A stretch of 20,000 nt of DNA, taken from Curvularia clavata. Lineage: Eukaryota. Made by a program: the position numbers and the translations under genes. Below the pieces are notes generated by a model that did no database searches, had not been told where the DNA came from, and worked only from the letters and a program-made list of their open reading frames with translations. Location of the stretch: assembly GCA_023920165.1 (NCBI GenBank), contig CP089277.1:4388497-4408496 (forward strand). Reading direction: 5' to 3'. Of the stretch, positions 1 through 19,645 are shown piece by piece (position 1 is the first letter of the stretch; each line of letters starts with the position of its first letter).

Positions 1-1360
1 TGTGGAATTCGCATTTCCCTGGCTGCAGATATAGCTTGTATTCCTTGAGCTTTCTGAGCACTTTCTTGACATGTTCGATGTGTTCTTCGAGCGTTCCCTT
101 GGAGTACACTAGTACATCGTCCAAGTAAGCTGTTGCGAAGACACCAAGGTATTCGTGGAGAGCGTTGTTGATGACTGATTGAAAGGTCGCCGGCGCATTC
201 GTTAGGCCGAACGGCATGACCGTATACTCGAACAGTCCATACTTCGTCTTGAACGCTGTTTTCCATTCGTCTCCTTCCTTGATCCTGATCCGATAAAATC
301 CTTCTCGGACATCGAACTTCGTGAACCACTTGGCTCCCTGGAGTCGATCCATGAGCTCTGTTATGAGTGGTAGTGGGTACCGATTCTTTCGGGTTACCGC
401 GTTCAACCTTCGGTAATCGACACATAGTCGCCATTTTCCGTTAGGTTTCTTTACGAACAATATGGGTGAGGCCATCGGGCCTGACCCCGGTCTGATGAAT
501 CCTTTCTTAAGATTCTTCCGGAGGTATTCCTTGAGCTCGGCGTCGTGCTCGGGCGATATAGGATACATGCCTCCTGGCGTCAACTTTGCTCCATCCTCGA
601 GGATGATCTCGTGATCCCAATCCTGATGTTCTGCTAAGTCTGTTGCCTCGTTTTCTTCGAATAGTTCCTTGAACTCATTCGTTCTGTATTCTTTAGGAAT
701 GTCCAACAATACGTCTTTGGGCTTTTCCTGGGGTAAGGGTCTGTCCTTCTTGGGCACGACTCGTCTTAACCAAATGACTCCTACTTGCTGAGGGTCCTTC
801 GCATAGATTCTCGCGATCTTATGCGGTGAGATCTTGCCGAATCTCCCATCCCGGGTTGTGCACTGATTCGTCGGGCGTATCTCATGTCGTACTCCAGCAA
901 CCCTTTTCGCAGGTTCTCGGCTGAGTATCGTTCTGTTTCGCCAGTCGATGGCGGGGTTATGGGCATCCAGCCAGTCATAACCGATCAATAGATCCGTTTC
1001 TCCTAGATCCATAATGCTAATGCTCATTTGACTCTTGGTATCGGACACCTCCAGTGTCACCAGTTCTGTCTCGAGCCTTATCGTGCCTTTGCCGTATGCT
1101 ACGGGCGTTTCTTCGGCCGATATTACCTGTAGCGGACGCTTCTTGCTCCGGTATGGTATTTCGTACTTCTCTACCACTCGGGGTGAGATCATTGTTCGTG
1201 CGGCACCGCTGTCTACGATTGCCTGTAATTTGTGTCCCTGTACATACACGGTCGTTACCAATTCCTTTGGGCGATCATCGGTGTAATGTACTCGTCTTAG
1301 GGTCGTTTTAGGACTGCCTTTACCAGCGTGACCCTGTCCCTGGTGGCATCCTAGTTTTTT
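1..1360 (-). CDS. pol: Pol polyprotein of element A (aspartic protease + reverse transcriptase), partial, expressed by -1 frameshift
   Basis: Manual translation: protease motif AIVDSGAARTMISP (~1190-1230); RT motifs RLCVDYRRLN, YTVMPFGLTNAPATFQ and YLDD (116-127). Absent from the ORF track because it runs off the window. Confidence 0.93.
1309..1360 (-). promoter_or_regulatory. -1 ribosomal frameshift signal of element A
   Basis: A_AAA_AAC heptamer (1360-1354) immediately before the gag TAG; the -1 frame opens into the protease; followed by an imperfect stem-loop TAGGATGCC-ACCAG...CTGGT-AAA-GGCAGTCCTA (1353-1309). Confidence 0.8.
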
Positions 1361-3441
1361 GACGGTCCCCTGGACCCAAGCTTCTTTCCCTTTCTTTTCC
1401 GCGGAAAGTAGCCATGGTTCTGTTTTGCGTCCAGGTGGATTCTGCAGTTGTCGTCTGTGCAGAAGGTCCAGTGTTCGTTTGGGTGGGGGATCATTTCTTC
1501 CAGCGTCTCTGGCAGGTTGATCTCCTTTGTCCCGTGCATCCTGCACTTGATCGTCCGGCATTCCTTAGCCGCGATCGTGCCGTGCAGATGGTGATCTGCA
1601 TGTCTTGCCGCGATTCTCTGTTCTCGGTGGAATCGGCATTTCTCTATGCAGTTGATCCAGCAGAGCTGCTCGTGAGCTCGTTGATGTTCTTCCTTGTGGA
1701 TGTGGCAATCCAGCATGGGGCAGTCGTTTGCCCATAGATGCTTGTGATTAGGATCATGCTCGTCCAACTTGCATTGTTCTTTAGCATCTGAGTGGAACAT
1801 ACAAAACCTCCTTTTGCATTCGTTCCAGGCGATCATTTCGTGATCGTCGTGTTGCTTCCATGGTGCGTGGATGGTGCAATCCAATACCTTGCATGCTTCA
1901 CTTCTTAAGTGTGCGTGGCAACATTCTTCTGCGTCGTACTGGGACAGTCTCGATTCTTCGGCATGGAACTCGCAGTAGTCTATACTGTCGCATTCGATCC
2001 AGTGCAGCTTTCTATGTTCGTCTTCGCGGTCGTTTTCTGGTTCCGGTAGCTCGTCCTTAAAGTACGGTTGTTCCTGGGCTGCCTGGGCAAGTACTTCCCT
2101 GGCCATCGGCCCTGTGACTGCAATTCTTCTTCCTCGAAGTGGGCAGCCATTGCCGTGGTGTGCTGGGTCTCCGCACATCCAGCATAAGTTTTGTGCGATC
2201 CGACGCTGGGCATCTGTGTCCTTCACGATCCAGTCGGATGGCTGTGGTGGTTCCCATTTCATGTGTTTGTCCGCTCTGACGAGCTCCGGGACAATCACAT
2301 AATCCGTGTTCTCAGCTAGACGTGCTTCGTCGTAGAGGTCTAGATCGCTGAGGTCGTCGTCGGAGGGTAGTGTAGATGGCTGTGACTTCAGCATCCTGAT
2401 CTTTACTACTGCCTGCTTGACTTCGTTCTTCGGGCAGTCTCTGCGGAAGTGTCCTACTTCGCCGCATCGGAGACATGCTTTGTTGTCATAACGCTTCTGG
2501 CGTTCTTCCTTGGAAAGGCCGTCCTGGCCCTTTCCTCGGGGTTTCTTGTCTCTGGTCTTTTCTTGTACTTTTCCCGTCATGATTGTATCGCCGTCCTTGT
2601 CTCGGTTGTTGCGTTGTTTCTTGGTGTTAGCCATGTTGGGTCGAAATTGCCGTTTCTTTTGTTCGTTTCGTTCCCAGATCCTATTGTCGATTCGCGTGGC
2701 CAGCTCAATCAGAGCTTGTAACGTTTCTGGCTTATCATGGTGTACTAGACCGTCTTTGACAATTTCCTTCAGACCGTCTTCGAATACCGTTCGAAGAGCT
2801 GCGTCGTCCCAATCAATTCGCGCTTGTAGCTGCTTAAACTCAGCTGTGTAAGCCGAAACGGACGTGGTCTGCTTCAGGCGTGTGATCGCTTTCTCTGCTT
2901 GGTTCTTGGCGTCGACCTCTCCGAAGACACGTCCCATTTCATCCTTGAAGTTGTTCCAACTTGCGAATAGGGCCTTGGTTTCTTCCTTGGTCCCTTTGGT
3001 CTTTATTGACGATAGGTAGTCCTCCACATATGGTTGGACCCAGTTAGCCGCTTTTCCTTTCATATGCGTACTGGCCATGAGGATCTTTTCCTGATCACTA
3101 GGTACCTCGTTGAATTCGCAGTATAGGTCGATGGTGGTGAGGAACGTTCGTAGGTCGTTACGGTTTCCGTCATACTTTTCGGGAGTTGCCATCTTAGGTT
3201 TCTTGACAACCTTTTCGTTTGGCGTAGCCATCAGCTGACTCATAAGCTGATTAACCATATTCTGCATTTCGATCATCTGCTGTGCCTGAGCCTGGTGCTC
3301 GCGTCTGAGATTGGCAAGTTCCCACTCAGGAGTCCCTGGGGCATGCTCGTTGCCCACTCCCTGGGTGCTTCCGGCCATGTTGATGTCCTGTGCGGGAGCC
3401 GGTCCCTGGACGTTGACATACTCGTTGGAGTTGCGTGACAT
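1351..3441 (-). CDS. gag: Gag protein of element A, 696 aa, with two CCHC knuckles and a C-terminal His/Cys repeat array
   Basis: Retrotransposon capsid-like region (PEKYDGNRNDLRTFL, LKQTTSVSAYTAEF); knuckles CLRCGEVGHFRRDC (2434-2475) and CWMCGDPAHHGNGC (2143-2184); lies between the LTR and pol. Confidence 0.93.
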   Translation of the reverse strand: MSRNSNEYVNVQGPAPAQDINMAGSTQGVGNEHAPGTPEWELANLRREHQAQAQQMIEMQNMVNQLMSQLMATPNEKVVKKPKMATPEKYDGNRNDLRTFLTTIDLYCEFNEVPSDQEKILMASTHMKGKAANWVQPYVEDYLSSIKTKGTKEETKALFASWNNFKDEMGRVFGEVDAKNQAEKAITRLKQTTSVSAYTAEFKQLQARIDWDDAALRTVFEDGLKEIVKDGLVHHDKPETLQALIELATRIDNRIWERNEQKKRQFRPNMANTKKQRNNRDKDGDTIMTGKVQEKTRDKKPRGKGQDGLSKEERQKRYDNKACLRCGEVGHFRRDCPKNEVKQAVVKIRMLKSQPSTLPSDDDLSDLDLYDEARLAENTDYVIVPELVRADKHMKWEPPQPSDWIVKDTDAQRRIAQNLCWMCGDPAHHGNGCPLRGRRIAVTGPMAREVLAQAAQEQPYFKDELPEPENDREDEHRKLHWIECDSIDYCEFHAEESRLSQYDAEECCHAHLRSEACKVLDCTIHAPWKQHDDHEMIAWNECKRRFCMFHSDAKEQCKLDEHDPNHKHLWANDCPMLDCHIHKEEHQRAHEQLCWINCIEKCRFHREQRIAARHADHHLHGTIAAKECRTIKCRMHGTKEINLPETLEEMIPHPNEHWTFCTDDNCRIHLDAKQNHGYFPRKRKGKKLGSRGPSKN

Positions 3442-5387: not shown

Positions 5388-5444
5388 TAGGGTAGGGTAG
5401 GGTTAGGGCTTAACCCCAAGTTAACCCCAACCCCAGAATTAGGG
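5388..5444 (+). repeat. Degenerate interstitial telomere-like tract
   Basis: (TAGGG)3 TTAGGG at 5388-5408, then TAACCCC/AACCCC units, then TTAGGG at 5439-5444. Confidence 0.75.
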
Positions 5445-5448
5445 TTTT

Positions 5449-5719
5449 TGTAACGGCGCGAGCAAGACTAGTCGAATCGGTTCCGGTGGGAAGTGTCACT
5501 CAAATGCATATGGAAGTGCGTGGGACAGCAGAAACACCTTGGATTCGGTAGACACTCATAGGCCTGGTACGAAAGGATATCAAAAATCTACCGAACATCT
5601 ATGGAAGGTACCTGGTACTTATACCTGGGTGCGGGTCTTCATCGGGTCTGACCCGGCTCTCAATCGGATCTTGATAAGCTGCCCTGGCTGGGGTATGTTT
5701 TGGTCTATGCATGGTTACA
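5449..5719 (-). repeat. 3' LTR of element B
   Basis: TGTAAC...GTTACA termini; direct repeat of 12374-12644. Confidence 0.97.
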
Positions 5720-5733
5720 TTACCCCCCCTCCC
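5720..5733 (-). promoter_or_regulatory. Polypurine tract of element B
   Basis: GGGAGGGGGGGTAA on the minus strand abutting the 3' LTR. Confidence 0.9.
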
Positions 5734-6204
5734 GGTAGACAGCTGGTCCCACAGCTGTCTGTTCCGGTTGTCATTCTTCTTCCCTGCACCATGGGGTCCC
5801 TCGTTCCTGATTTCCCCCAGATTTTCCCCACACTGCGCCACTTCGGGCAATAGGATGCTCCGGTTCCGGTGTGGCTCCCGTGGCCGTGCATGTCCTTCAC
5901 TTGAGCCTCTGTGCCTGAGCCTCAGTGACCATTCCGGTACTCACGTGGCGCTGCTGCCTTGCTGCCTGGCCGCTAGGCCGTTTGCCTTCACCTGCCAGAC
6001 AGGCCTGGACGCTTCGATCGGAGCTCCGAGTCGCCGGCGATTCGTTTGTAGTCAGGGTCCAACGGCTATCCAGGTCACGTGTGCCAAGACTGTTTGCTCC
6101 CCCAGTGTGTATATCAACAACAACACAGTGTCGCCGCCGAGTTTTCTCCTCCACGCTTCTCAATCAAAACAAGTCAATTACAACTCAACGCACTCGTTTT
6201 CGCT

Positions 6205-6872
6205 ATGCCTCTTCGTTGTCCGCCCGGTGCGCTGCCGGATGCGTATCGCTTCATCTGTCTGCGAGCTGTCCGCGCCTTGGCGCGCCGTCAGTTCGACATT
6301 GCTTACGCCTACCCGTCCGATTCCTCCAAGAAGTGTCTTTATTGCACCCAGCAGAAGGAGAAGTGCGATCCTGTAAGTTTGCTTCTCTTTTCCTTCACTG
6401 TTTGCAGCTTGGCTAACCCGGATAGGTTCCCGAGTACGTCTTCGAGGAGTTTCACGATTTGATCGATGCCATCGAGTTGTGTGCCATCGCTCGGTATGGC
6501 CCTGCAGTTGATGCCGATACGGAGGTATTGCTTGATCGAATCGCTGCCGCCGCTTTGGACATCGCCCGCAAGGTCCAAGTTGTCAGGTCCCAGGAGAAGG
6601 AGCTTTCAGTCAATCAGCTCCTCGTCGCCCAGAACCAGGTCCTGAGGGACATCCGAGACAGCATCTCGGAGTTGGTCGATACAGTCAATGGCATGGAAAG
6701 GCGCCTTTCGCGTCTTGAGGCCAGGTCGGCTCGGGGTGGCGCCCGGGTCGGCCCTCGGGTCGAGGAGTCGGAGGAATGGTCTGGTTTGTCCTCCTCCTCA
6801 GAGGAGGACAAGGGTGCGGTTGACCAGGAGATGGCCGACGCTGAGCAGGAGCGCTCTGATGTTGAACTTTGA
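6205..6872 (+). CDS. Antisense two-exon accessory gene inside element B (exons 6205-6372 and 6426-6872; 204 aa; Cys motif, coiled coil, acidic tail)
   Basis: 53-nt intron with GTAAGT donor (6373), GCTAAC branch site (6412-6417) and TAG acceptor (6423-6425); splicing joins track ORFs 6079..6462 and 6459..6872 in frame (KCLYCTQQKEKCDP|VPEYVFEEF); CT/CA-rich leader before the ATG. Confidence 0.82.
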
Positions 6873-6970
6873 GTGAGGTGACATTTTGGGGGTTTGTTGG
6901 TGGTTGTGGGGTTCGGGTCCGAGTTTCCTTTGTTACTGATACCCAATGAAGTTTCTGTTTTTCCTTTTCT

Positions 6971-9900
6971 TTAAATTTTGTCATCCTGCAGTGAAGTCAT
7001 ATCCTCTGTGCCTTGTTCCCATGCCGTGATCCACTTGCCAAGGGAACGTGGGGGTCCCGGTTTGGTGGGATGTTGTTCATGGAAGAGTTTGAGCTTGTGT
7101 GGGGCTCCCATGAAGTTTGAGGCTGGGTACCAGGTAGGATCCGGGTCATGTCCGACCCACCGTACTTGGTATTTTAGGTTTGAGCGGTACAACTTGCTTG
7201 CTAGGATTTCTTCTACCTCCCATTCTTCCACGCCTTGGATGGGAGTTGCTGGGGGCTTTGGAGGTTCTTGTCCTGGGAGGGGGTCTTGAGGATCTTTGCA
7301 TAATAGATCCGGGGCGAAGACATCATGGATCCGGGACCTTTTCGGAAGGTCCAAGCGGTATGAATGTCCTACCTTCTCAAGTACCCTGAAGGGTCCCTCC
7401 CATTTGGAGGATAGCTTCCTACTCGGACGGTCTGACGCGAGGTTCCGGGTACTTAGGAAGACCATGTCTCCCACATCCCAGTCAACAGAACGACGATGGC
7501 GGTTGACTGTGGTTCGCATCCTGTCCTGGGCTTTCTCCATTTGTTCCTTAGCTACCTTCCATGCGTCGTGCATGCGGGTAGCCATTTCCAATGCATCCTT
7601 ATGGTTGAGTTTGTCAGTGGGGGTGAGAAGGCTGGTGGAATGTTTCCAGTCCCAACTCTGCCGGGGTTCGGAACCATATAGGATGTGGTACGGGGACATG
7701 CCAATGGAAGAATGTGGTAGGGAAATTTGAGCACGATCGATCAAAGGTAGAAGTCCACTCCAGTTGTCTTGGTAGTAGGATACGAATGGGCGCAACCTCT
7801 GATCGATGTACTTATTCATAATCTCTGTCTGACCATCCGTTTCTTTGTGGTAGGCGGTTGACAGCTTGACCTTAACGCCTAGGATTCGGCAGAATTCCGA
7901 CCAGAAGCTTGAAATGAACTGTGGTCCTCGGTCAGAGACTATGGTTTCAGGTGTGTGGCCAAATCGGTACACCCATTGAACGAATAGGTCGGCCATTCCC
8001 CTTGCATCAATAGTCTTGTGGCAGGGGATGGAGATGGCCTGCTTAGATAACCGGTCGATCACGACCATGATCATGTCGTAACCGGATCGGTCTCGGGGAA
8101 ATTCCTTAAAGTCGATGCACAGGTGCTGCATCGGCCGGTCAGGAATTGGCAAAGGATGAATCATCCCTGGAATTCGGGTCTGTCTAGGATGGGCCTTCCT
8201 ACAGGCTATGCAATTCCGCACATACCTTTTACAGGTGGATTCCATACCCTTCCAGTGGTACTTCTGGGACAGTAGTTGGTAGGTCTTCTTTGCACTGGGG
8301 TGCGCTGAGGATACCTGGTCGTGTACTTCCCGAATGAGGCGAGTCACAAGGGTAGAGGTGGAAGGAATGCATAGGCGGTTGGAATAGAGCAGGAGTCCGT
8401 TTTCGATCCGGTATCTGTCCGGAAGGGACCTTCGCTCTGCCCCAAACGAGGCTCGGTTCTCTTGTAGGATAGACTCGATCAGCTCCAGCGAATCGAGGGA
8501 CATCGGCTCCGATATGGGCTCAACTACAAGTAAGGAGAAAGATTCCGCTTGGAGTTGGGCTACATAGGTCTTAGCAAGTTCGGAGTTGATTCGGTTGTCA
8601 AGTCGGTGCGGTCCCAGGAGGACCCGCGAACGGTTGTCAATTTGGGCTGTCTTCAGATTCCCCACATCTTGCTCCCGTCGGGAGAGGATGTCAGCACGAG
8701 CATTATCCTTTCCGGGGGTGTATCGGATGTGGAAATTGAAGGATGCCAACTCTTCCGCCCATCGCACCTGGCGGGCATTCAGAACTTTGGTAGTCATGAA
8801 GTATTCAAGGGAACGGTGGTCTGAGTACACGTCGACACGAGAGCGTACCGACAGCAGTTCAGGTCGCCACTTGCTAAACGCCGTTACGATGGCGAATAGT
8901 TCTTTGTCGTGTATTTCCCAGTTCAGCTCAGACCCGGATAGGACCTTGCTGAAGAATGCTACAGGACACCAATTTCCATTTGGCTGCTTTTGGGAAAGAA
9001 CGCCTGCCACAACGCCATCGGACGCGTCGGTCTCCACCTTGGTATCATACTCTGGATGGTAGTGGTACAAGGTGGGAATTGCCAGCAGTGCAGATTTTAA
9101 CCTTTCAAAGGCTTGGTCGCACTCCGAATCCCATACGAATGGTCTTGAGGGGCTCTGGAGGGCGAGGAGAGGTTTCGCAATTCGCGAGTATTCAGGAACG
9201 AACTGCCTGTAGAACCCAGTGAACCCTAGGAACGACTTCACACCAGTAACGGTGGTAGGTCGGACCCAATCTTGAAGGGCTTCCACCTTGTCAGGGTCCA
9301 CCTCTAGACCTTGGTTGGTCAAAATGTACCCTAGGTATTTGGTCCGAGTGACATGGAATTCGCTTTTCTTGATGTCAACTTGGAGACCGGCTTGCCTAAG
9401 CCTTTCCAAGACCTGTTGTACGTGGCGGGGGTGGTCCGGTTCCGATTCGGAGTAGATCAAAATGTCGTCTAGGTAGACTATGCAGAAGCTGTCTAGATAA
9501 TCAATCAACACATCATTCATGTAGCGTTGATATGTTGCAGGGCCGTTGCATAATCCAAAAGGCAACACTTTGGACTTGTAGGTTCCGTATCTAGTGCGGA
9601 ACGTGGTGTACTCCTCCGAGTCGGGGTGCATTCGGATCTTGTTGAATGCCGCACGTATGTCGAGCTTGGTGAAGATTTTCGCCTTGTGGGTGCGGGCTAG
9701 AAGCTCGTCAATGCGTGGTATCGGATACGCATCCTTTCTGGTGATTGCGTTGAGTCGGCGGTAATCTACACAGATGCGAATGTCTCCGTTTGGCTTCCGA
9801 ACACAAAGGACTGGGGAGGCGAAGGGGCAGTGGCTTGGGTCAATGTGTCCTTTCCTAAGGTTTTCCATTACGAACGTCTTGGTGGCTTCGAGTTCTTCAG

Positions 9901-10906
9901 TGCTCTGCTTGTACAGAGGACTGAATTGATTCGGAAGAGGTTCGGTCAGCACAATCTTATGATCGTATGGGCGATGTTCGGGCAGTAGCTCTGCCGCTGT
10001 CTTGCTGAAGACATCGCGGTACGAATGGTAAGCGGATGGAAGTCGGTCCCGAACAAGTTTGGCGTTTTCGGGATCGTCTGGCTTCATGCGCTCTTCTAAG
10101 ATGCGATCGATCTCATAGATACTTGTCGTGAAGAACTCGTTTTCCTTACGCTTCATAGAATAATGGAAAGCATTTGCCGAAATGATGGCGATACGGGGTG
10201 AAGATGTTGGTCGGATAGGGTCCGGAGTAGGGTCGGGAACAGGTAGTGGTAGACGAACCTTGGGAAGTTTGAGGCATCCTCTAATTCTTCGCATGAGAGC
10301 TTTGCGAGGACTGTTTTGCCTACGGTAGTTGTCCTTTTCCCATAGTGCGTCTCGCCTCTGTATGTCCCGTTCCACATCAGCATCGATGGAAGGTTGTTTC
10401 AACTGTACAAGGATAGGTGGCGCGGGATCATATGTTGGAGGGTACTTGGCCGGCCATACGATCCGGTTCCGGCTCGTATCAAGCCTAAGCTGGAAACGTC
10501 TTAACCACTTGATTCCAATTATGCAGTCCTGTGTCCCTAGATCCATGATCACGAAGGGACAGTTGTAAATCTTTCTTCCATCGATTCGGATATGTAACCG
10601 AATATATTTGTCTACCCTAGTTTGGACTTGGTCCTGAAATCCTTTGACTGTGATCTTGAAGGGAAGTCTTCGGATGGGGACCTGAAGGGAGCCGGAGAGG
10701 GTACGAGCAATAGCAGAATTTAAGAATAAAAAGCCTTGGGCTCCAGTGTCAACTAAGGAGTGCAAGCTGACACCAAACCCTTTCGAACAAAGAACGGTGG
10801 GTACTAGGAAGTGTTTTCCTCCGAACAAGTGGGATAAATCAATTTTAGCTAGATCGTACTTGTTCATGCCTAGGGCGGAGAGTTTTCCTAGGCCTGGTGG
10901 TTTCCC
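6971..10906 (-). CDS. pol: Pol polyprotein of element B (protease, RT, RNase H, integrase, chromodomain)
   Basis: LVDTGAQG; YLDDILIYS; VETDASDG; HDQVSSAH...CIAC zinc motif; IVSDRGPQF and TDGQTE integrase core; KWEGPFRV; EEWEVEEILASK...YQVRWVGH chromodomain. Within track ORF 6971..10993; real entry is probably the frameshift at 10906-10900. Confidence 0.97.
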   Translation of the reverse strand, partial: GKPPGLGKLSALGMNKYDLAKIDLSHLFGGKHFLVPTVLCSKGFGVSLHSLVDTGAQGFLFLNSAIARTLSGSLQVPIRRLPFKITVKGFQDQVQTRVDKYIRLHIRIDGRKIYNCPFVIMDLGTQDCIIGIKWLRRFQLRLDTSRNRIVWPAKYPPTYDPAPPILVQLKQPSIDADVERDIQRRDALWEKDNYRRQNSPRKALMRRIRGCLKLPKVRLPLPVPDPTPDPIRPTSSPRIAIISANAFHYSMKRKENEFFTTSIYEIDRILEERMKPDDPENAKLVRDRLPSAYHSYRDVFSKTAAELLPEHRPYDHKIVLTEPLPNQFSPLYKQSTEELEATKTFVMENLRKGHIDPSHCPFASPVLCVRKPNGDIRICVDYRRLNAITRKDAYPIPRIDELLARTHKAKIFTKLDIRAAFNKIRMHPDSEEYTTFRTRYGTYKSKVLPFGLCNGPATYQRYMNDVLIDYLDSFCIVYLDDILIYSESEPDHPRHVQQVLERLRQAGLQVDIKKSEFHVTRTKYLGYILTNQGLEVDPDKVEALQDWVRPTTVTGVKSFLGFTGFYRQFVPEYSRIAKPLLALQSPSRPFVWDSECDQAFERLKSALLAIPTLYHYHPEYDTKVETDASDGVVAGVLSQKQPNGNWCPVAFFSKVLSGSELNWEIHDKELFAIVTAFSKWRPELLSVRSRVDVYSDHRSLEYFMTTKVLNARQVRWAEELASFNFHIRYTPGKDNARADILSRREQDVGNLKTAQIDNRSRVLLGPHRLDNRINSELAKTYVAQLQAESFSLLVVEPISEPMSLDSLELIESILQENRASFGAERRSLPDRYRIENGLLLYSNRLCIPSTSTLVTRLIREVHDQVSSAHPSAKKTYQLLSQKYHWKGMESTCKRYVRNCIACRKAHPRQTRIPGMIHPLPIPDRPMQHLCIDFKEFPRDRSGYDMIMVVIDRLSKQAISIPCHKTIDARGMADLFVQWVYRFGHTPETIVSDRGPQFISSFWSEFCRILGVKVKLSTAYHKETDGQTEIMNKYIDQRLRPFVSYYQDNWSGLLPLIDRAQISLPHSSIGMSPYHILYGSEPRQSWDWKHSTSLLTPTDKLNHKDALEMATRMHDAWKVAKEQMEKAQDRMRTTVNRHRRSVDWDVGDMVFLSTRNLASDRPSRKLSSKWEGPFRVLEKVGHSYRLDLPKRSRIHDVFAPDLLCKDPQDPLPGQEPPKPPATPIQGVEEWEVEEILASKLYRSNLKYQVRWVGHDPDPTWYPASNFMGAPHKLKLFHEQHPTKPGPPRSLGKWITAWEQGTEDMTSLQDDKI
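10868..10906 (-). promoter_or_regulatory. -1 ribosomal frameshift signal of element B
   Basis: G_GGA_AAC heptamer (10906-10900) in the gag frame, 6-nt spacer, then a 7-bp stem GCCTAGG/CCTAGGC (10893-10868); the -1 frame is the pol ORF. Confidence 0.85.
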
Positions 10907-12078
10907 GCCCGGTCCTCCTCCGATAAGTATTCGTGTGCTTCTTCGAATTCTTCCTTCTCTGCTTCGATTTCTCGAACCCGAGGAATGGGGCACTCATTCG
11001 CATAATGTCCAGGTTTTCCGCAGTTATAGCAATTGCTAGTAGTCGGTTTGCTATCCAGTGCGGGGGTCTTTGAAGGGAACCTGGGGGTATTAGAATGAGC
11101 GCGAGATTGGGTCGGAGCTGGTTCGGATCGGACTCCATAAGTGTTTGGGCGGTAGTCCCGGTATTGACTGACGCGGGGCTTCGTTGGTGGAGTACGAGAA
11201 TTATTGGAAGTGGGTTCCGAACCGTGTCCGAAAGGAGTGTTCCTTCTTTCGGTATCGAAGGCAGTAAGGTGTTGTATCATCTTGTCAAAGGAGTTGTTCC
11301 ACTGGTGTTTAAATCCCAAGTTTGGAACACGCAAGGCGGGGGTAATTTTTTCCCATAAGTAGAAAAACCACTCCGACTTCGATACGGATCCTTTGACGGC
11401 AGCACTTATAAATTTTGCCTTAAATTCAGCGAAGGTTTCCTTTTTGTCCATGAGCAAGCGGTGGAAAGCAGCGCGGCTTTCCGCTTGCTCGTTGCCGGAT
11501 ACGAAGTATGATTTTAGAGTAGCTATCATATCTTCGGCGTTTTGGAACCGGTCCTCCACCGAATCGGCTAGGTACTGTGGTTCCAGGTATCCCTTGGCGA
11601 TACCTGTAGTATGTCCCCAGACTAGAGCCATGCGTGCGCGTTCACTCCGATAATGGTCCGCGTTGATTGTTAAGCGGTCCTCTATTGACGCTTGCCATTG
11701 GCGGAACGTAGGTTCTGTTCCATCACTAAGGTTATCAATGGAAGGGGTACGTTCTGTGAGTTTGACACGTAGCAGGTCCGGGGTTGCTGACTGGTACCTT
11801 CCGAATTGAGTTTCGGTTGGTTCAGCGATAGTCGGTGGTGATTCGGTGGAGGGGAGAGGTTGATCTGGGGCTGCGGTGTTTTGGCGGGACAGCCGTGCGA
11901 TTTGTTCGTTTAGCCTGTCGATCTCTGCCCGAAGGAGGCTAGTCTCATCCTCTTCCGAATCCTCTTCCTCTTCGACGGCTGGCGGTTTGCCAGGCGTCTT
12001 CTCTCTTGACTTCGAATCTTGGAAGCGCGGCGACTTCCTGGAAAGCTCTCCTGAGCCGGATGGGGTTCGGTCAGCCAT
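10888..12078 (-). CDS. gag: Gag protein of element B, 396 aa
   Basis: CCHC knuckle CYNCGKPGHYANEC near the C-terminus; lies between the 5' LTR and an overlapping pol. Confidence 0.93.
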   Translation of the reverse strand: MADRTPSGSGELSRKSPRFQDSKSREKTPGKPPAVEEEEDSEEDETSLLRAEIDRLNEQIARLSRQNTAAPDQPLPSTESPPTIAEPTETQFGRYQSATPDLLRVKLTERTPSIDNLSDGTEPTFRQWQASIEDRLTINADHYRSERARMALVWGHTTGIAKGYLEPQYLADSVEDRFQNAEDMIATLKSYFVSGNEQAESRAAFHRLLMDKKETFAEFKAKFISAAVKGSVSKSEWFFYLWEKITPALRVPNLGFKHQWNNSFDKMIQHLTAFDTERRNTPFGHGSEPTSNNSRTPPTKPRVSQYRDYRPNTYGVRSEPAPTQSRAHSNTPRFPSKTPALDSKPTTSNCYNCGKPGHYANECPIPRVREIEAEKEEFEEAHEYLSEEDRAGNHQA

Positions 12079-12358
12079 CGACGGTTGTCTTCGTGGCTGA
12101 TGGGTTTTTGGTAGTCTCCGAGTCTCTACCTTGGCGCAATCTACGCGACTTCTCCGAAGTTAACCTGACTGCAATCAGTACAGGAGGTCCAAACCCAAAG
12201 GCTTCGGTCGGCGGGAGATCGAAGGGATCCCGCCTGTGTGTGAATGTGGGACGTAACGGTGTGAAGTATCCGGAGCGGTTCCGGAGGGACTTGGGCTTGG
12301 GCGCGGTCTCAACAAACAAGCTGCGATATTGTTTTGAAGGCCGTCACCGGCTGGGACG

Positions 12359-12371
12359 AGATTTTTGATAT
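12359..12371 (-). promoter_or_regulatory. Self-priming primer-binding site of element B
   Basis: ATATCAAAAATCT (minus) lies 2 nt inside the 5' LTR and is perfectly complementary over 13 nt to AGATTTTTGATAT (minus, 12514-12502), about 30 nt downstream of TATAAG (12548-12543). Confidence 0.85.
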
Positions 12372-12373
12372 AA

Positions 12374-12644
12374 TGTAACGGCGCGAGCAAGACTAGTCGA
12401 ATCGGTTCCGGTGGGAAGTGTCACTCAAATGCATATGGAAGTGCGTGGGACAGCAGAAACACCTTGGATTCGGTAGACACTCATAGGCCTGGTACGAAAG
12501 GATATCAAAAATCTACCGAACATCTATGGAAGGTACCTGGTACTTATACCTGGGTGCGGGTCTTCATCGGGTCTGACCCGGCTCTCAATCGGATCTTGAT
12601 AAGCTGCCCTGGCTGGGGTATGTTTTGGTCTATGCATGGTTACA
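12374..12644 (-). repeat. 5' LTR of element B
   Basis: Direct repeat of 5449-5719, followed by TSD GTTTT. Confidence 0.97.
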
Positions 12645-12805
12645 GTTTTGTGCACTAGGGCAACGTCGTACGACTAGATTCGTGTCGGCAGAGCAACCAA
12701 AATAAGTAGAAATGTAAACAGCGATCTATTTACTGCTACGTAGCAGCAATATATAAGAGGCTTAGTGGATAGACGTAAATATATTAATGCTGGTCAGAAT
12801 AAGCT

Positions 12806-13113
12806 AAAGGCCCCTTTTTGGACTCAGTCAAAACCTATCAAACCTAGCCAAAGACACCTTTTTGGACTCAGTCAAACCAGTCAAACCAGTTAAATCAGTC
12901 AAAGTCAGTCAAAAGCCCCTTTTTGGACTCAGTCAAACCAGTCAAACCAGTTAAATCAGTCAAAGTCAGTCAAAAGCCCCTTTTTGGACTCAGTCAAACC
13001 AGTCAAACCAGCCAAACCAGCCAAACCAGTCAAACCAGTTAAACCAGTCAAACCAGTTAAACCAGTCAAACCAGTCAAACCAGTCAAAGGCCCCTTCTGA
13101 TGGACTTAGTGAA
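12806..13113 (+). repeat. Compound minisatellite upstream of the helicase (helicase-associated-repeat-like)
   Basis: 9-bp CAGTCAAAC units nested in larger units headed by CCCCTTTTTGGACTCAGTC or variants, starting at 12811, 12855, 12916, 12977 and (degenerate) 13091; 61-bp period in the middle. Confidence 0.9.
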
Positions 13114-14770: not shown

Positions 14771-17700
14771 ATGGATCTATTTAGAGAGATTTTTGTATAT
14801 TTGCCTACACATTGCATAGCGATATGCAAGAGCCATAAGCAAGGCGTCGTAAAGTCGCAGCTGCGCACCCACTTAGACACTAAGCACCAGGAGCTGGCCC
14901 CCCATACACGGCGCAGCATGGTGCAAGCCACTAGCCAGGAGCCATGGCTGCGCAACTGGGCCGAGAGTGCAGACCAGGTCATGTTTCCACGTCCAGATGC
15001 TGCGCCGCTGCCCCATATGCCCGTGTACACAGACGGCTTGAAGTGCTGGGAGTGTGGATATATTTGCCGGCACGTGAAGAAGATGCAGGAGCATGGCCGG
15101 AACCACCACAACTGGACTGGCAGCAACACACGCAGAGTCGGCCGTCCAGCAGCTATACAGCAGAGGTGGACAGACAGCGTCATATGCCAGAAGTTTCAGA
15201 ACACCGGTACGCTGGGCCGGCTGTTTGAAGTCCAGAGCGCTGCACCCGCTGAGCCAGCAGATAGCGATGACGGGGAGACACAGCTAAGACGCGCATTTAC
15301 TACTGCCATTACACAGATCGACCAAGTGATAGAGAGCAAAAAGGCTAGTAATGTCGTTGAAGAAGACGGCAGCCGGTGGGGATTCGAGGACTGGCTGGAA
15401 CGAGCTGGCTGGGTACGGCACTTGAAGGGGCTGGACCGGCTGTGGCTGCTGGACATGGCACTAACACCCAGTTACCACGAACGGGCACTGCAGGACGTGT
15501 GCTGGGCAGCCGAGATGGTGATTTGGAGGGCGCAGCAGGTGTCTCACTCGAGCGTAGTAGGCATGCCCGCCATTATGCATATCAACCGGCGCGAGTATGG
15601 GACAAAGACGAATGAGAAGCCATTCAACGCGAGCCAGATGGAGACAACTATGAAAAAATACCGCAGCGTGTGGCTCCAGATTATAGTATATATCTGGCGC
15701 ATGTACGAGCTGCCTGTAGTCTAGCTAGATTCCAGCAATGAAGTGCAGGGCAGACGCCCACCATACCGCTTGACAAGCGAGCAGAAGGCATGTTTGGAGG
15801 AGCTGAAGGATTTGACTGGGTATAACCCAGAAGAGGAGGCAGCTAGCACAGCGCGGAGCATAGAGCCAGGGGGCAGCTATGGGGAGGACAGTGACAGCGA
15901 GGACGAGCAGCTGGATGCAAAATACGGCGAGGCGTTGCAGGACCAAGTGCTTGCGTTCATGCTTGCGCTGCTAGATTACAAGCTACCCAGTATTGAGTTT
16001 GAGAGTGGCTTTATAAGCGGCATGGCGGTGCTAGGAGTAAGCGCAGACAGAGGATGGCTAGATGCGCCCATGTATACGCCCAAGCAGTCTGCCGTTGTCG
16101 CTATATCGCGCATGCTTGTATTATACCAAGCACACAAGGAGCGGACAGCGAAGATTGATAAGCTAGTGGCTAGTGGGTACAGCAAGGAGGCAGCTAGTAG
16201 GATCGCACCGACGCATCTCGAGCTGGTGCAGGACATGGGCTACAGATTTATGGTGCTAGCCGAGTTCAACGGGCAGCCCACGCCCATGGATGCTGTTTTA
16301 CGGCTACGAGCATTTGGCTTTACGGCCTAGTTTAACACCAATGCTGAGGGCGTGATAGACTGGGTGGGCGACACGTTGTTGTATGGGCAGATCCAGTTCA
16401 GCATGGCGCAGCTACGGACGATGGTGCACGGCATGATTGCCAGCACGCGACAGGACATGCTGAAACAGCTGCTACTGCTAGAGCTGGACAGTGAGGGCGA
16501 GGTGGTGCCTGGGACGACGCCGTGTCCCGCTATTTACTGGGACAAGCTAGTAGACAATGCCGCGCAACGGCAGGCTGGATGGAGTTTTATGGAAGACGCG
16601 CGCAACCACCAGGCTACTAGTGCACAAGACCCCAAGCGCTGGCTAGTAGGGCGCGTTCAGCAAGAGAAGAGACTGCGACATGAGTTTGCTGATGCTGCGG
16701 CGTCGCGTGTGGCTATGGCGGGGGGTGGTGGGCTAGTGTGGGTGAAGGAGCGCATCCGGGCATACTACAAAGCCATGCAACAAGCCCGCCACGCACTTGC
16801 AGTACTTGTGCATATAATAGGAGGTGCGCCACCGCGTGGTAGTGAGTTACTAACTATCCGTTTTAAAAATGATGGGCAGGGGCACAGTCGCGGAATTTTT
16901 ATCGAAGATGGTGCAGTAGTTTTTGTTACCACTTACCACAAAAATATTGCCCAGAATAGACGCGGTAAAGTGATCCACCGCTATGTCCCGCGCGAGGTAG
17001 GGGAACTAGTCGTATTTTACTTGTGGTTTTGCCGTCCATTTTGGCAGCGGTTAGTGGTGGCAGCGTGGGGGGAGGCGGAAGAGGAGAGTGGGTATATGTG
17101 GGAGCCACAGCCCGAGCGGCGCTGGCAAGAACCCACCTGCGGGCGAAAGCGCAGTGCAGACCTACAGGGCACAAGAAGAGTAGGAAAAGCGAGCTGGGTG
17201 AGGACTGTGGTGCGGCGGGAGGCGTTAGACGAGGAGAGTGAAGGAGAGAGTAGAGAGGAGGGAGAGAAGCGACGGGAAGAGAAGGAAGAGAGAGAAGAGA
17301 GTCGGGTACTGGCTGACAAGCCGCCCACGGTAGAGCAATGGAACTCCAACCGACTTAAGCTGAGGATATAAAAGGCATCGCTACAATATATGGGGATTAA
17401 GCTAAATGTAATTGGGTGGCGGCATGCATCTAAGGCGATTTGGCGCCGATATATTCAGAACCCCAAGGCACGTAAGGCGTACTTGAATGCAGATGAGGAC
17501 GATGCGGAGGAGGAGGAAGACGAGGCGTTCGACTTACAGACCGGGCATGGTAGTAGAGTGGCTGGCGCAATTTACGGGCGGTCGCTGAATGAGGCGGCGT
17601 TTAGTGTGGAATCTAAGCGGTTTATGTTCCGAGTATCGAGCAGCGAGTGGCACAGGTTTTTGGAGCTCCCGTCTGTGCAGGAGAAGAAGCTACAGCTACT

Positions 17701-19645
17701 GCAACGGAGCCCGCTGGCTGTCAAGGCGCGCAGGGAGGCGTTGGAGGAGGAGTACCGGCGGTGGAAGATGATGCGGCTGGTGGACGTGGACAGTGAGCTG
17801 CAGCGGCTACTAGGATGCAACGCGCAGTTTCGCAGTGTACAGAGGCCGGCGATGCAGGCGATTATGCGGTATGAGAGTCCCGTTGTGGCCATTATGGGGA
17901 CGGGGGCTGGCAAGAGCGTGTTGTTTATGCTGCCAGCGTCTGTGTCAACGGGGGTTACGGTTGTAGTAGTACCGTTGGTGGCACTGCGGTTTGACATGAA
18001 GACACGGTGTGACGAGCTGGGGATTGTTAGTGGGGAGTGGGATAGCCGGCGTCCGTATAGGAGTGTGTAGATTATGTTTGTGACGCCAGAAGCGGCGGTG
18101 GGAGAGGCGTTTGGGCATTATATTAACCGAGAGCGGTCGATAGGGCGGCTAGATCGGATTGTGATTGACGAATGTCACTCGATACTGGACTCGCTTAAGG
18201 GATTCCGTAGCCGGCTGCTAGGACTGCGACAGCTGCTTTGGGTGGAGACGCAGATGGTGTATTTGACGGCGACGCTGAGGCCGAAGGAAGAGAAGCAGTT
18301 TTTGGATGTGATGGGGCTGCCGGAGAAGAGGAAGTGTTAGTGGTTCCGGGGGCGGATAACGCGTAAGAATATCCGGTATGCAGTACACGAGTATAATATA
18401 GAAGAAGAGGAGAAGACAGTAGTGGGATTAGTAGAGAAGCTAAAGAAGAGATACCCGCTACCAGGGCAGGTGATTGTGTACTATGGGACGATCGCACGGA
18501 CAAAACAGATAGGCAAGGTGCTAGAGGCGGCTTGTTACTACTGGGCGGTAGGGACAGTAGAGGAGAAGAAGAAGATTGTGCGGGAGTTGACGAGTGGGCA
18601 GCAGCAGGTATTTGCGGCAACCAATGCGTTGGGACTGGGGGTAGACGCACCAAGGATCCGGGCGGTGGTATATGTAGGAGGGGTGCAGCAGATGCGGCAG
18701 TACGCGCAGGAGAGTGGACGGGCTGGACGAGATAGGGAGAAGAGCGAGGCGATTATTATGCGGGGATATTAGATAAGGGGGAGAAAGAAAGCGTTTGTAA
18801 GAGCAGAAGGGGGAGAGGTAGAAGAGGATATACAGTTGTTTGTAGAAGGCAAGGGGTGTATGCGAGCAGTACTTGACTGGGCTATGGATGGAGTGGAGCG
18901 GGGGATGTGTGAGGAGGATGAGGTAGCATGTCAGCGGTGCGGGTGGGAGAGTAGTGATGAAGAGGAAGAGGGAGAAGAGGGAGAAAAGAGAGAGGACGAA
19001 GACGGAGATGAGGAAGAGAGAGAAGAGATGGGATTGCGGTTGGCGTTTGAGCAGCAGAGACGGCAGCGGCAGTGGGTAGGGATGGTAGAAGCGGAGCGGC
19101 AGTGTCGAGATGCGATGGAGGTAGAGGAGCTGGTCGGGGTAATAGAGAAGTGGCGGGAGGGCTGTCAGTGGTGTGTAGCGAGTGGAAGAGATGGGCGAGG
19201 GCACGTATGGGAGGAGTGTGAGGACGAAGGGGGTCAGGAGGGGCTAAAGGGACTCAAGATGCTGCAGGACAACTGGCAGATTGTGCCGTATTCGTGCTGC
19301 TACGGGTGCTGGCTGCCGCAGGCGGTGTGTGAGAGCTTTGGGTTTGACATGCAGAAGGGGGGATATCGAAAGCAGAGAGAGGTAGGGTGTTAGTATAATG
19401 GGGTACTAGACAAGGTATTTATTATTGGGTTGATAAAGGCAGGGTTGGCGGTACATAAGGTGATGGAGTAGGCGATTAAGGAGGATGGGGGGCTAGGGTT
19501 TCGGGTAGACGAAGAGGAGGTTGGGGGCGTGTTGAAGGGGTGGGCGCGGTGGGGGAGTGAGAAGAAGCGGTGGGGAGGGATTGAAGGGAACAAGTTAAGC
19601 TGGGTTATTCAGCGGGTAGACGAGTATATTTATATAGAAGAGTAG
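14771..19645 (+). pseudogene. Telomere-linked RecQ-like helicase (TLH-type): DUF3505-like zinc N-terminus, tyrosine-recombinase-like middle, RecQ helicase and Cys-rich C-terminus; 1624 codons with 8 in-frame stops
   Basis: Seven track ORFs share one frame with no indels; stops at 15722, 16328, 17369, 18068, 18338, 18770, 19391, 19469. Helicase motifs MGTGAGKS, VVVPLVAL, IVIDECH (DECH 18167-18178), LTATL, ATNALGLGVD, QESGRAGRD and an RQC-like CMR...C...CQRC; oriented toward the telomere array. Confidence 0.92.

Follow-up and report, generated by a model that had tools for sequence, protein, structure and literature searches.

Retrotransposons with long terminal repeats (LTRs) are usually seen as gag-pol machines. 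In some of them, an additional gene lies on the strand opposite to gag and pol. Boty of Botrytis cinerea and Sclerotinia sclerotiorum has an antisense gene, brtn, between pol and the 3' LTR (Zhao 2011, Virology 417:248, as cited in PMC8365987, PMC7264820, PMC4227169 and PMC5987419), and BRTN proteins are present in public databases, where Monilinia transcripts match them (PMC5987419). In plants, such genes form the class called aORF-3R, with Grande gene23 of maize, RIRE2 of rice, Retand of Silene, and PvRetro13 as described cases (PMC7264820, PMC11963269). The Grande antisense protein is nuclear and its gene has its own promoter, while the antisense open reading frames (ORFs) of Retand mostly carry a TRP28 domain (PMC11963269). 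The present analysis concerns a 20,000-nucleotide stretch of the fungus Curvularia clavata (contig CP089277.1, positions 4,388,497 to 4,408,496 of the forward strand; hereafter, the window). An intact, recently mobile Ty3/gypsy chromovirus occupies the minus strand of this window, and a small plus-strand gene with an intron, here called the passenger gene, lies between its pol and its 3' LTR. The best explanation, and to our minds a likely one, is that the chromovirus carries a genuine antisense third gene whose product depends on splicing.

The locus resembles Boty, as that element is described in the papers citing it, in being a fungal, chromodomain-bearing Ty3/gypsy element with an extra antisense gene between pol and the 3' LTR; unlike the hosts of Boty, which are Leotiomycetes, its host belongs to the Dothideomycetes. 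An earlier note on the window, made from the sequence alone, had called antisense ORFs "not standard in fungal chromoviruses", a statement that has to be qualified by brtn of the Boty-like Botrytis and Sclerotinia elements (Zhao et al. 2011). With the plant aORF-3R genes, the passenger gene shares its position and its orientation; the plant genes are retained in most copies of a family, and a regulatory or DNA-binding role has been proposed for them (PMC7264820, PMC11963269). The plant elements are non-chromovirus Tat/Retand elements with pol-LTR regions of 3-6.5 kb, whereas the region here is a compact 1.25 kb within a chromovirus. Introns are not mentioned for the plant genes in the main texts of PMC7264820 and PMC11963269, whereas the passenger gene has one. 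Its protein also differs from the antisense ORFs described for the Retand lineage in lacking TRP28 (PF04195), for which the Pfam search of the family members gave no match.

The passenger gene and the sequences that border it are arranged as follows (window coordinates; nt, nucleotides; aa, amino acids).

5734..6204, plus strand: spacer of ~470 bp upstream of the gene, presumed to hold the promoter and the 5' untranslated region; TATA-like TATATC at 6110-6115, 95 nt before the ATG
6205..6372, plus strand: exon 1, translated into 56 aa, basic (net charge +5), with five conserved cysteines and 58-74% identity to relatives
6373..6425, plus strand: intron of 53 nt, with a GTAAGT donor and a GCTAAC branch site ~10 nt before the TAG acceptor
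6426..6872, plus strand: exon 2, translated into 148 aa plus stop, with an acidic helix, an RxVQVTRSQEKELS block, a heptad helix, and an acidic Ser-rich tail
6873..6970, no strand: gap of 98 nt, read from the sequence, between the convergent stops of the passenger gene and pol

Exon 1 (6205-6372) encodes MPLRCPPGALPDAYRFICLRAVRALARRQFDIAYAYPSDSSKKCLYCTQQKEKCDP, which ends at its C-terminus in KKCLYCTQQKEKCDP. The intron reads GTAAGT...GGCTAACC...ATAG, and exon 2 starts with VPEYVFEEF, holds the heptad helix LLVAQNQVLRDIRDSISELVDTVNGMERRLSRLEAR, and closes with the acidic tail, for a spliced product of 204 aa. The two exons are in different frames: the frame of exon 1 continues through the intron and stops at 6460, and the frame of exon 2 is shut by the TAG at 6423-6425, which is itself the acceptor. 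Thus, exon 2 can be translated from the ATG of exon 1 only after splicing. The GTAAGT/GCTAAC/TAG signals, the dependence of the frame on their use, and the conserved position of the intron (discussed later) are those of a spliceosomal intron. The gene lies between the pol stop (6971, minus strand) and the polypurine tract (5723-5733) on the opposite strand, which is the arrangement of the aORF-3R class, and the sequence given above presumably has its promoter within the 5734-6204 spacer. The earlier note had described a plus-strand gene convergent with pol, a canonical 53-nt intron, a 204-aa product with a heptad-rich helix and an acidic tail, and a region of ~1.25 kb between pol and the LTR. 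All of these are present in the sequence or its translation, and 1,251 bp separate the pol stop (6971) from the base that follows the 3' LTR (5720).

That note had also proposed a search with the spliced protein. The product is letter-for-letter identical to P0010, a 204-aa "uncharacterized protein" found under 4 Curvularia clavata accessions, and both exons recur in relatives from Bipolaris and Exserohilum that are 34-74% identical to it. Further C. clavata copies are P0003 (1 substitution), P0011 (a longer 5' model), and P0004 (178 aa, with another splice and 7 substitutions). The gene is multi-copy: counted as cluster members, at least 7 accessions belong to C. clavata and 4, identical to one another, to Exserohilum turcicum. 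As to P0004, its annotated splice skips 26 aa, at least 6 of its 7 substitutions could each have arisen from the window codon by one G>A or C>T transition, and it appears to be a decaying copy.

With exon 2 as the query, an exhaustive phmmer search, run over 1.84 billion representatives, found 6 proteins at E<=0.001, and a profile search, which covered proteins of 70-357 aa, found 13 at E<=0.01. The named matches of the profile are from Curvularia clavata, Bipolaris victoriae, B. maydis, and B. sorokiniana, and the rest are ENA, Logan, or JGI ORF calls. Homologues carry the identifiers XP_014550003.1 in B. victoriae, BM1_07360 and KAJ6201203.1 in B. maydis, and KAL6154656.1, which has three identical copies, in E. 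turcicum. One phmmer match, P0009 (304 aa, E 9.3e-5, residues 43-92 only), was dropped from the alignments as a probable chance match of repeat or coiled-coil sequence. None of the 13 comes from Botrytis, Sclerotinia, or another Leotiomycete, so that no relation to BRTN is detectable at the sensitivity of this search, in which the BRTN sequence itself was not compared. No description of this Pleosporaceae family was found in the literature searched, and given the precedent of brtn in Boty, the protein family is new but the kind of gene is known, with a layout already seen in fungi. Among proteins of 360-2000 aa, no longer or fused relative was found at E<=0.01, which is weak evidence. Profile A2, scanned against metagenome sequence, had 166 pattern matches, none of them a relative, and a scan of viral contigs also gave no relatives. 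Two metagenome loci reached with P0022 as the query, L001 and L002, were set aside as short, acidic chance matches (tblastn best E 1e-5 over 16-19 aa, with other family members at noise). In the ESM Atlas, only Ascomycota clusters were found, at 0.88-0.90.

Conservation within the family is seen at the level of the protein. Three relatives are full-length (P0005, P0016, and P0013), and their identity to the window is 67-74% in exon 1 and 34-43% in exon 2. The first 26 residues are nearly unchanged among relatives. Of the five cysteines, C5, C18, and C54 are kept in all eight sequences that bear the N-terminus and C44 and C47 in seven of them, the sole miss being a gene model with an internal gap. 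The RxVQVTRSQEKELS block and a QVL motif in exon 2 are also conserved, while the acidic tail keeps its composition and not its sequence, and the indels are in frame. On the minus strand over exon 2, every frame contains 2-3 stops, and therefore the conservation of exon 2 is not the shadow of a sense-strand ORF.

The position of the intron can be followed through the same sequences. The exon junction, C-x-P|VPEYV, is retained in P0005, P0016, and P0013. Two ORF calls, P0020 (...KEKCSPVSF...) and P0021 (...KEKCDPVSL...), are unspliced read-throughs, which diverge at the codon where the intron of the window starts and continue with V-S (GTx AGx), like CDPVSL in the window, from GTAAGTTTG. This common point of departure indicates that the donor position is conserved in copies that are only ~66% identical in exon 1. 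In another ORF call, P0017, both exons are joined without an intron (...CEPVPVYVAEEF...), which would make it either assembled spliced RNA or an intron-less copy. The earlier note had named loss of the frame or of the splice sites in diverged family members, together with an absence of spliced plus-strand reads, as findings that would speak against the gene. In these members, both the donor codon (P0020, P0021) and the junction (P0005, P0013, P0016, P0017) have been kept. Taken together, the sequence comparisons indicate that the antisense, intron-containing gene within the element is a genuine third gene.

The link to the element itself is seen in the diverged sequence P0022. Part of this sequence is 49% identical to the passenger gene of the window; then, after a deletion, it continues into a tail, AVKSYPLCLVPMPESTSIANGEVPV (AVKSYPLCLVPMP...), that corresponds to window positions 6988-7062, antisense to the 3' end of pol, with 76% identity over 25 aa. 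Judging from this alignment, the passenger gene of the copy behind P0022 likewise converges on the pol tail and lies directly against it. This linkage, and the presence of several copies per genome, suggest that the gene is a stable part of the element family and not a one-off capture. Retroelements do pick up host sequence, and capture of passengers has been discussed for the plant aORFs (PMC11963269). A host gene acquired by transduction, which would ride the element without serving it, could account for the normal fungal intron and for the gene's own upstream spacer. Such a capture is improbable here, given that the protein searches found no host paralogue outside the small multi-copy family, that the gene is found in elements of three genera diverged to 34-74% protein identity, and that in at least one diverged copy, P0022, its position next to the pol tail is the same. 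If a host gene was captured long ago and the element then domesticated it, this reading would merge with the preferred explanation, that of a genuine third gene.

The element that carries the gene consists of the following parts.

5449-12644, minus strand: whole Ty3/gypsy chromovirus, 7,196 bp
5444..5448, no strand: left copy of the target-site duplication GTTTT, read from the sequence
12645..12649, no strand: right copy of the duplication GTTTT, read from the sequence
5449..5719, minus strand: 3' LTR, 271 nt, TG...CA, 100% identical to 12374-12644
12374..12644, minus strand: 5' LTR, 271 nt, with TATAAG at 12543-12548 (minus strand) and a 13-nt self-complement at 12502-12514, the presumed start of the element RNA
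5723..5733, minus strand: polypurine tract GGGAGGGGGGG, 3 nt off the 3' LTR, read from the sequence
6971..10993, minus strand: pol ORF of 1,340 aa with protease, reverse transcriptase, RNase H, integrase, SH3_Tf2-1, and chromodomain, from Pfam
10888..12078, minus strand: gag ORF of 396 aa with a CCHC zinc knuckle, overlapping the pol ORF
12359..12371, minus strand: primer-binding-site-like ATATCAAAAATCT, 2 nt past the 5' LTR, complement of LTR positions 131-143

The termini of the LTRs are TGTAAC...GGTTACA, and both gag and pol are open on the minus strand. Pol has the Pfam order protease (74-166), RVT_1 (398-558, E 2.5e-39), RNase H (621-752), and integrase (881-1049), followed at residues 1258-1306 of 1340 by a chromodomain (PF00385, E 3.7e-5) that covers positions 1-52 of the 53 in the profile, with a score of 24.0 bits, 1.1 bits below the Pfam gathering score of 25.1. 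The LTRs with their duplication, the order of the enzymes, and, with this reservation as to score, the C-terminal chromodomain are the features of a Ty3/gypsy chromovirus. The gag and pol ORFs overlap at 10888-10993 (~105 nt). By hand calculation from the coordinates, pol lies in the -1 frame of gag, which fits programmed -1 frameshifting.

The earlier note had taken the retrotransposon to be intact, and the identical LTRs, the GTTTT duplication on both sides, and the open gag and pol agree with it. In addition, one sequencing run (X1) contains the empty site: a contig joins 5443 to 12645, skipping 7,201 bases (7196 + 5), with 5 bases shared and a single GTTTT. The same run covers the whole element at an even, DNA-like depth, and the sole difference that it shows in the passenger coding sequence among near-identical copies, 6686 C>T, turns GTC into GTT and by hand translation leaves the protein unchanged. 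Together, the identical LTRs, the open ORFs, the duplication, and the empty site indicate that the element is intact and insertionally polymorphic, and thus recently mobile.

How an intron can persist in an element that passes through RNA was also addressed by the earlier note, which reasoned that an antisense intron survives retrotransposition. The reasoning is sound and follows established knowledge. In the genomic RNA of the element the intron is antisense; it cannot be spliced there and so is copied with every retrotransposition. Since reverse transcription passes the intron on, the gene moves with the element as one of its fixed components. Under the proposed mechanism, the passenger gene would be transcribed from its own promoter, located in the ~470-bp spacer by the 3' LTR, in the direction converging on pol. 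The 53-nt intron would then be removed, joining the two exons into the message for the 204-aa protein. Expression of the gene would come only from integrated DNA, by this plus-strand transcription of its own, and the transcript would overlap the 3' end of pol.

Overlap of the two transcripts is likely in view of the convergent stops, which are 98 nt apart, and Botrytis retrotransposons do give rise to small RNAs (PMC8365987). One may ask whether the antisense transcript matters rather than a protein. The element would then be tuned or silenced by convergent transcription over the 3' end of pol, acting through double-stranded RNA or transcriptional interference. We hold this to be distinctly improbable as the whole explanation. 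Conservation is at the level of the protein, in the cysteines, the VQV..QE..LS block, the in-frame indels, and the composition of the acidic tail, and this argues for a translated product. Effects of the RNA could exist alongside those of the protein that the preferred explanation calls for.

The predicted protein has a modular architecture. A basic module with five cysteines is followed by an acidic helix, a zipper-like helix, and an acidic Ser-rich tail, with net charges of +5 (residues 1-56), -7 (57-87), +1 (88-160), and -10 (161-204). An AlphaFold2 model built from a 10-sequence alignment (pLDDT 66) has helices at residues 59-80 and 88-160; its N-terminal module is predicted with moderate confidence, and its tail is disordered. 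Within the second helix, all eight a and d positions of residues 126-156 are L, I, V, or M, and in residues 108-160 the count is 11 of 16, which was reached by only 2 of 2000 shuffles. With its roughly four clean heptads, the long helix probably pairs with itself. A homodimer prediction for residues 57-165 (score 0.02) returned no answer and is evidence neither way. The five-cysteine module probably binds metal. As a whole, this architecture is compatible with a small oligomeric nucleic-acid-binding regulator.

Zn2Cys6 domains have the pattern C-x2-C-x6-C-x5-12-C-x2-C-x6-8-C. The earlier note had read the protein as resembling a degenerate form of this domain, and the corresponding explanation is that the product is a degenerate Gal4-type factor, or belongs to a diverged zinc-cluster-like accessory family of fungal chromoviruses, and binds DNA via a binuclear zinc cluster. 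A C-x2-C-x6-C triad with flanking lysines (KKCxYCTQQKEKC) is indeed present in seven of the eight sequences, and the order of basic cysteine module, coiled coil, and acidic tail is like that of small Gal4-type activators. However, the conserved cysteines number five (5, 18, 44, 47, 54) and not six, they make up a single triad, and the second half, C-x2-C-x6-8-C, is absent; what follows the triad is the acidic helix VPEYV.... Zn_clus (PF00172) and DUF3716 matched none of the 10 family members at E<=10, in searches where the HMMER filters discard most matches above E ~0.1. The family profile had 6 matches at E<=10 among PDB sequences, all coiled coils and unrelated proteins and none a zinc-cluster chain. 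Foldseek returned helical proteins only (best E 0.34), and the N-terminal module modeled alone (pLDDT 59.9, a low-confidence model) matched no chain at Z>=2. The lack of any relative of 360-2000 aa points the same way, if weakly. We therefore consider a zinc-cluster factor quite unlikely, and the degenerate Zn2Cys6 of the earlier note is not borne out. More generally, no Pfam family exceeded its threshold, the best being coiled-coil look-alikes (E ~0.007, 17 bits versus cut-offs of 33), and the VIA-wide fold search with the full model found generic long helices (best Z 7.3). Thus, the structure prediction that the earlier note had suggested gives long helices and a disordered tail, and no specific fold match.

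Several observations weigh against a genuine spliced gene with a working product. Sequencing runs containing part of the window numbered 17 of the 24 listed, and contigs of four (X1, X2, X3, X12) were placed on the element; the 6372/6426 splice joint is absent from all four. Among contigs from libraries recorded as RNA, a single one spans the intron (X2, 6192-6460, depth 5, no differences), and the intron is still present in it. Its source could be unspliced message, but also carried-over DNA or minus-strand RNA of the element itself. In addition, the annotated 204-aa models are computer predictions whose supporting evidence is not visible, the conservation of the intron is drawn from ORF calls and not from aligned DNA, and no family, solved structure, or fold match backs any function, with the model of the N-terminal module being of low confidence. 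As to the RNA, the contigs are strandless and lose rare forms, and the uncovered parts of X2, X3, and X12 are uninformative. Given such contigs, a minus-strand RNA that keeps the intron, and possible DNA carry-over, splicing is neither shown nor excluded by these runs.

The lack of spliced RNA in the four runs and the fact that all full-length models are predictions would also be expected of an annotation artefact, in which chance ORFs and a chance GT-AG pair were repeated by gene finders. This is very improbable: both exons are conserved in three genera, the position of the donor is conserved even in unspliced ORF calls, P0017 is a contiguous, intron-less ORF call, and the stops on the minus strand leave no frame open there across the conserved blocks of exon 2.

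For a genuine third gene, one parallel in function comes from a retrovirus. HBZ of human T-cell leukemia virus type 1 (HTLV-1) is a small, spliced bZIP protein encoded antisense to gag-pol near the 3' LTR, in which a basic region is combined with a zipper-like helix and a region of the activation type. It is mentioned as a retroviral antisense gene in a paper on the plant elements (PMC11963269). The likeness to the passenger protein is a functional analogy without sequence or family relation: the passenger protein has no bZIP match, its basic module is cysteine-rich, and it is known from sequence alone. By its architecture and its analogues (HTLV-1 HBZ, Grande gene23 of maize, and Retand of plants), the product might be a small oligomeric nucleic-acid- or chromatin-binding regulator of the element's own expression or life cycle, a role that we regard as possible but, on balance, doubtful; the earlier note had likewise suggested that it may regulate the element or counter silencing. 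A wider proposal, which we consider unlikely as it stands, is that the family represents one branch of an old, widespread, and largely unrecognized third gene of fungal chromoviruses. Such genes would be small, antisense, and intron-protected, would encode a cysteine cluster and a coiled coil, and would share a common origin with brtn; the product would be an LTR-binding regulator like HBZ, which times expression or shields the element from silencing.

Whatever its exact role, the passenger gene sits in an element that offers a clean, intact case for an accessory gene, most other fungal examples being mutation-riddled relics. Should the protein act as a regulator of the element or of its silencing, fungi would have a counterpart of the retroviral antisense regulators and of the antisense ORFs of plants, and interest would be high if genes of this kind turned out to form a single, ancient family of chromovirus regulators in fungi. 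In plant-pathogenic Pleosporaceae, the family members are now annotated as multi-copy "hypothetical proteins", which should count as transposon genes.

The element has a second feature that sets it beside a known system. Tf1 of Schizosaccharomyces pombe, from the work of Levin and co-workers, belongs to the self-priming Tf1/sushi group of Ty3/gypsy elements. In the window, no primer-binding site of the transfer RNA type is present 2 nt after the 5' LTR, where ATATCAAAAATCT stands. This 13-nt sequence is the perfect complement of LTR positions 131-143 (12502-12514, and also 5577-5589), with TATAAG 29-34 nt upstream of them, and suggests that reverse transcription is primed in a Tf1-like manner, by self-priming. 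The element is thus like Tf1 in having SH3_Tf2-1, a chromodomain, and a putative 13-nt primer site complementary to the LTR ~30 nt after TATAAG, although self-priming here is deduced from complementarity only. To our knowledge, Tf1 has no antisense gene, unlike the element described here.

Just outside the 3' LTR, positions 5400-5448 hold telomere-repeat-like motifs in both orientations (GGGTTAGGG..., ...TTAACCCC..., ...TTAGGG), and the element may lie in subtelomere-like or degenerate repeat DNA. The minus strand at 1-3441 holds another Ty3/gypsy element, distinct from the first. Its gag-like ORF has 696 aa (Retrotrans_gag, Ty3_capsid, CCHC), and its pol ORF (protease and reverse transcriptase) runs off the start of the window, so that the 3' part of the element, in which an accessory gene would be expected, lies outside. 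Beyond the flank of the 5' LTR, at 12831-13025, are three tandem 73-nt units with 61-nt spacing and 81-100% identity, rich in AAACCAGTC. Further on, at 14771-19393 on the plus strand, there are consecutive ORFs, one with OrsD (PF12013, E 1.1e-22) and one with the start of a DEAD/DEAH helicase domain (E 1.1e-6). From these matches, they look like a large intron-split or broken helicase gene of a kind common in fungal repeat-rich regions.

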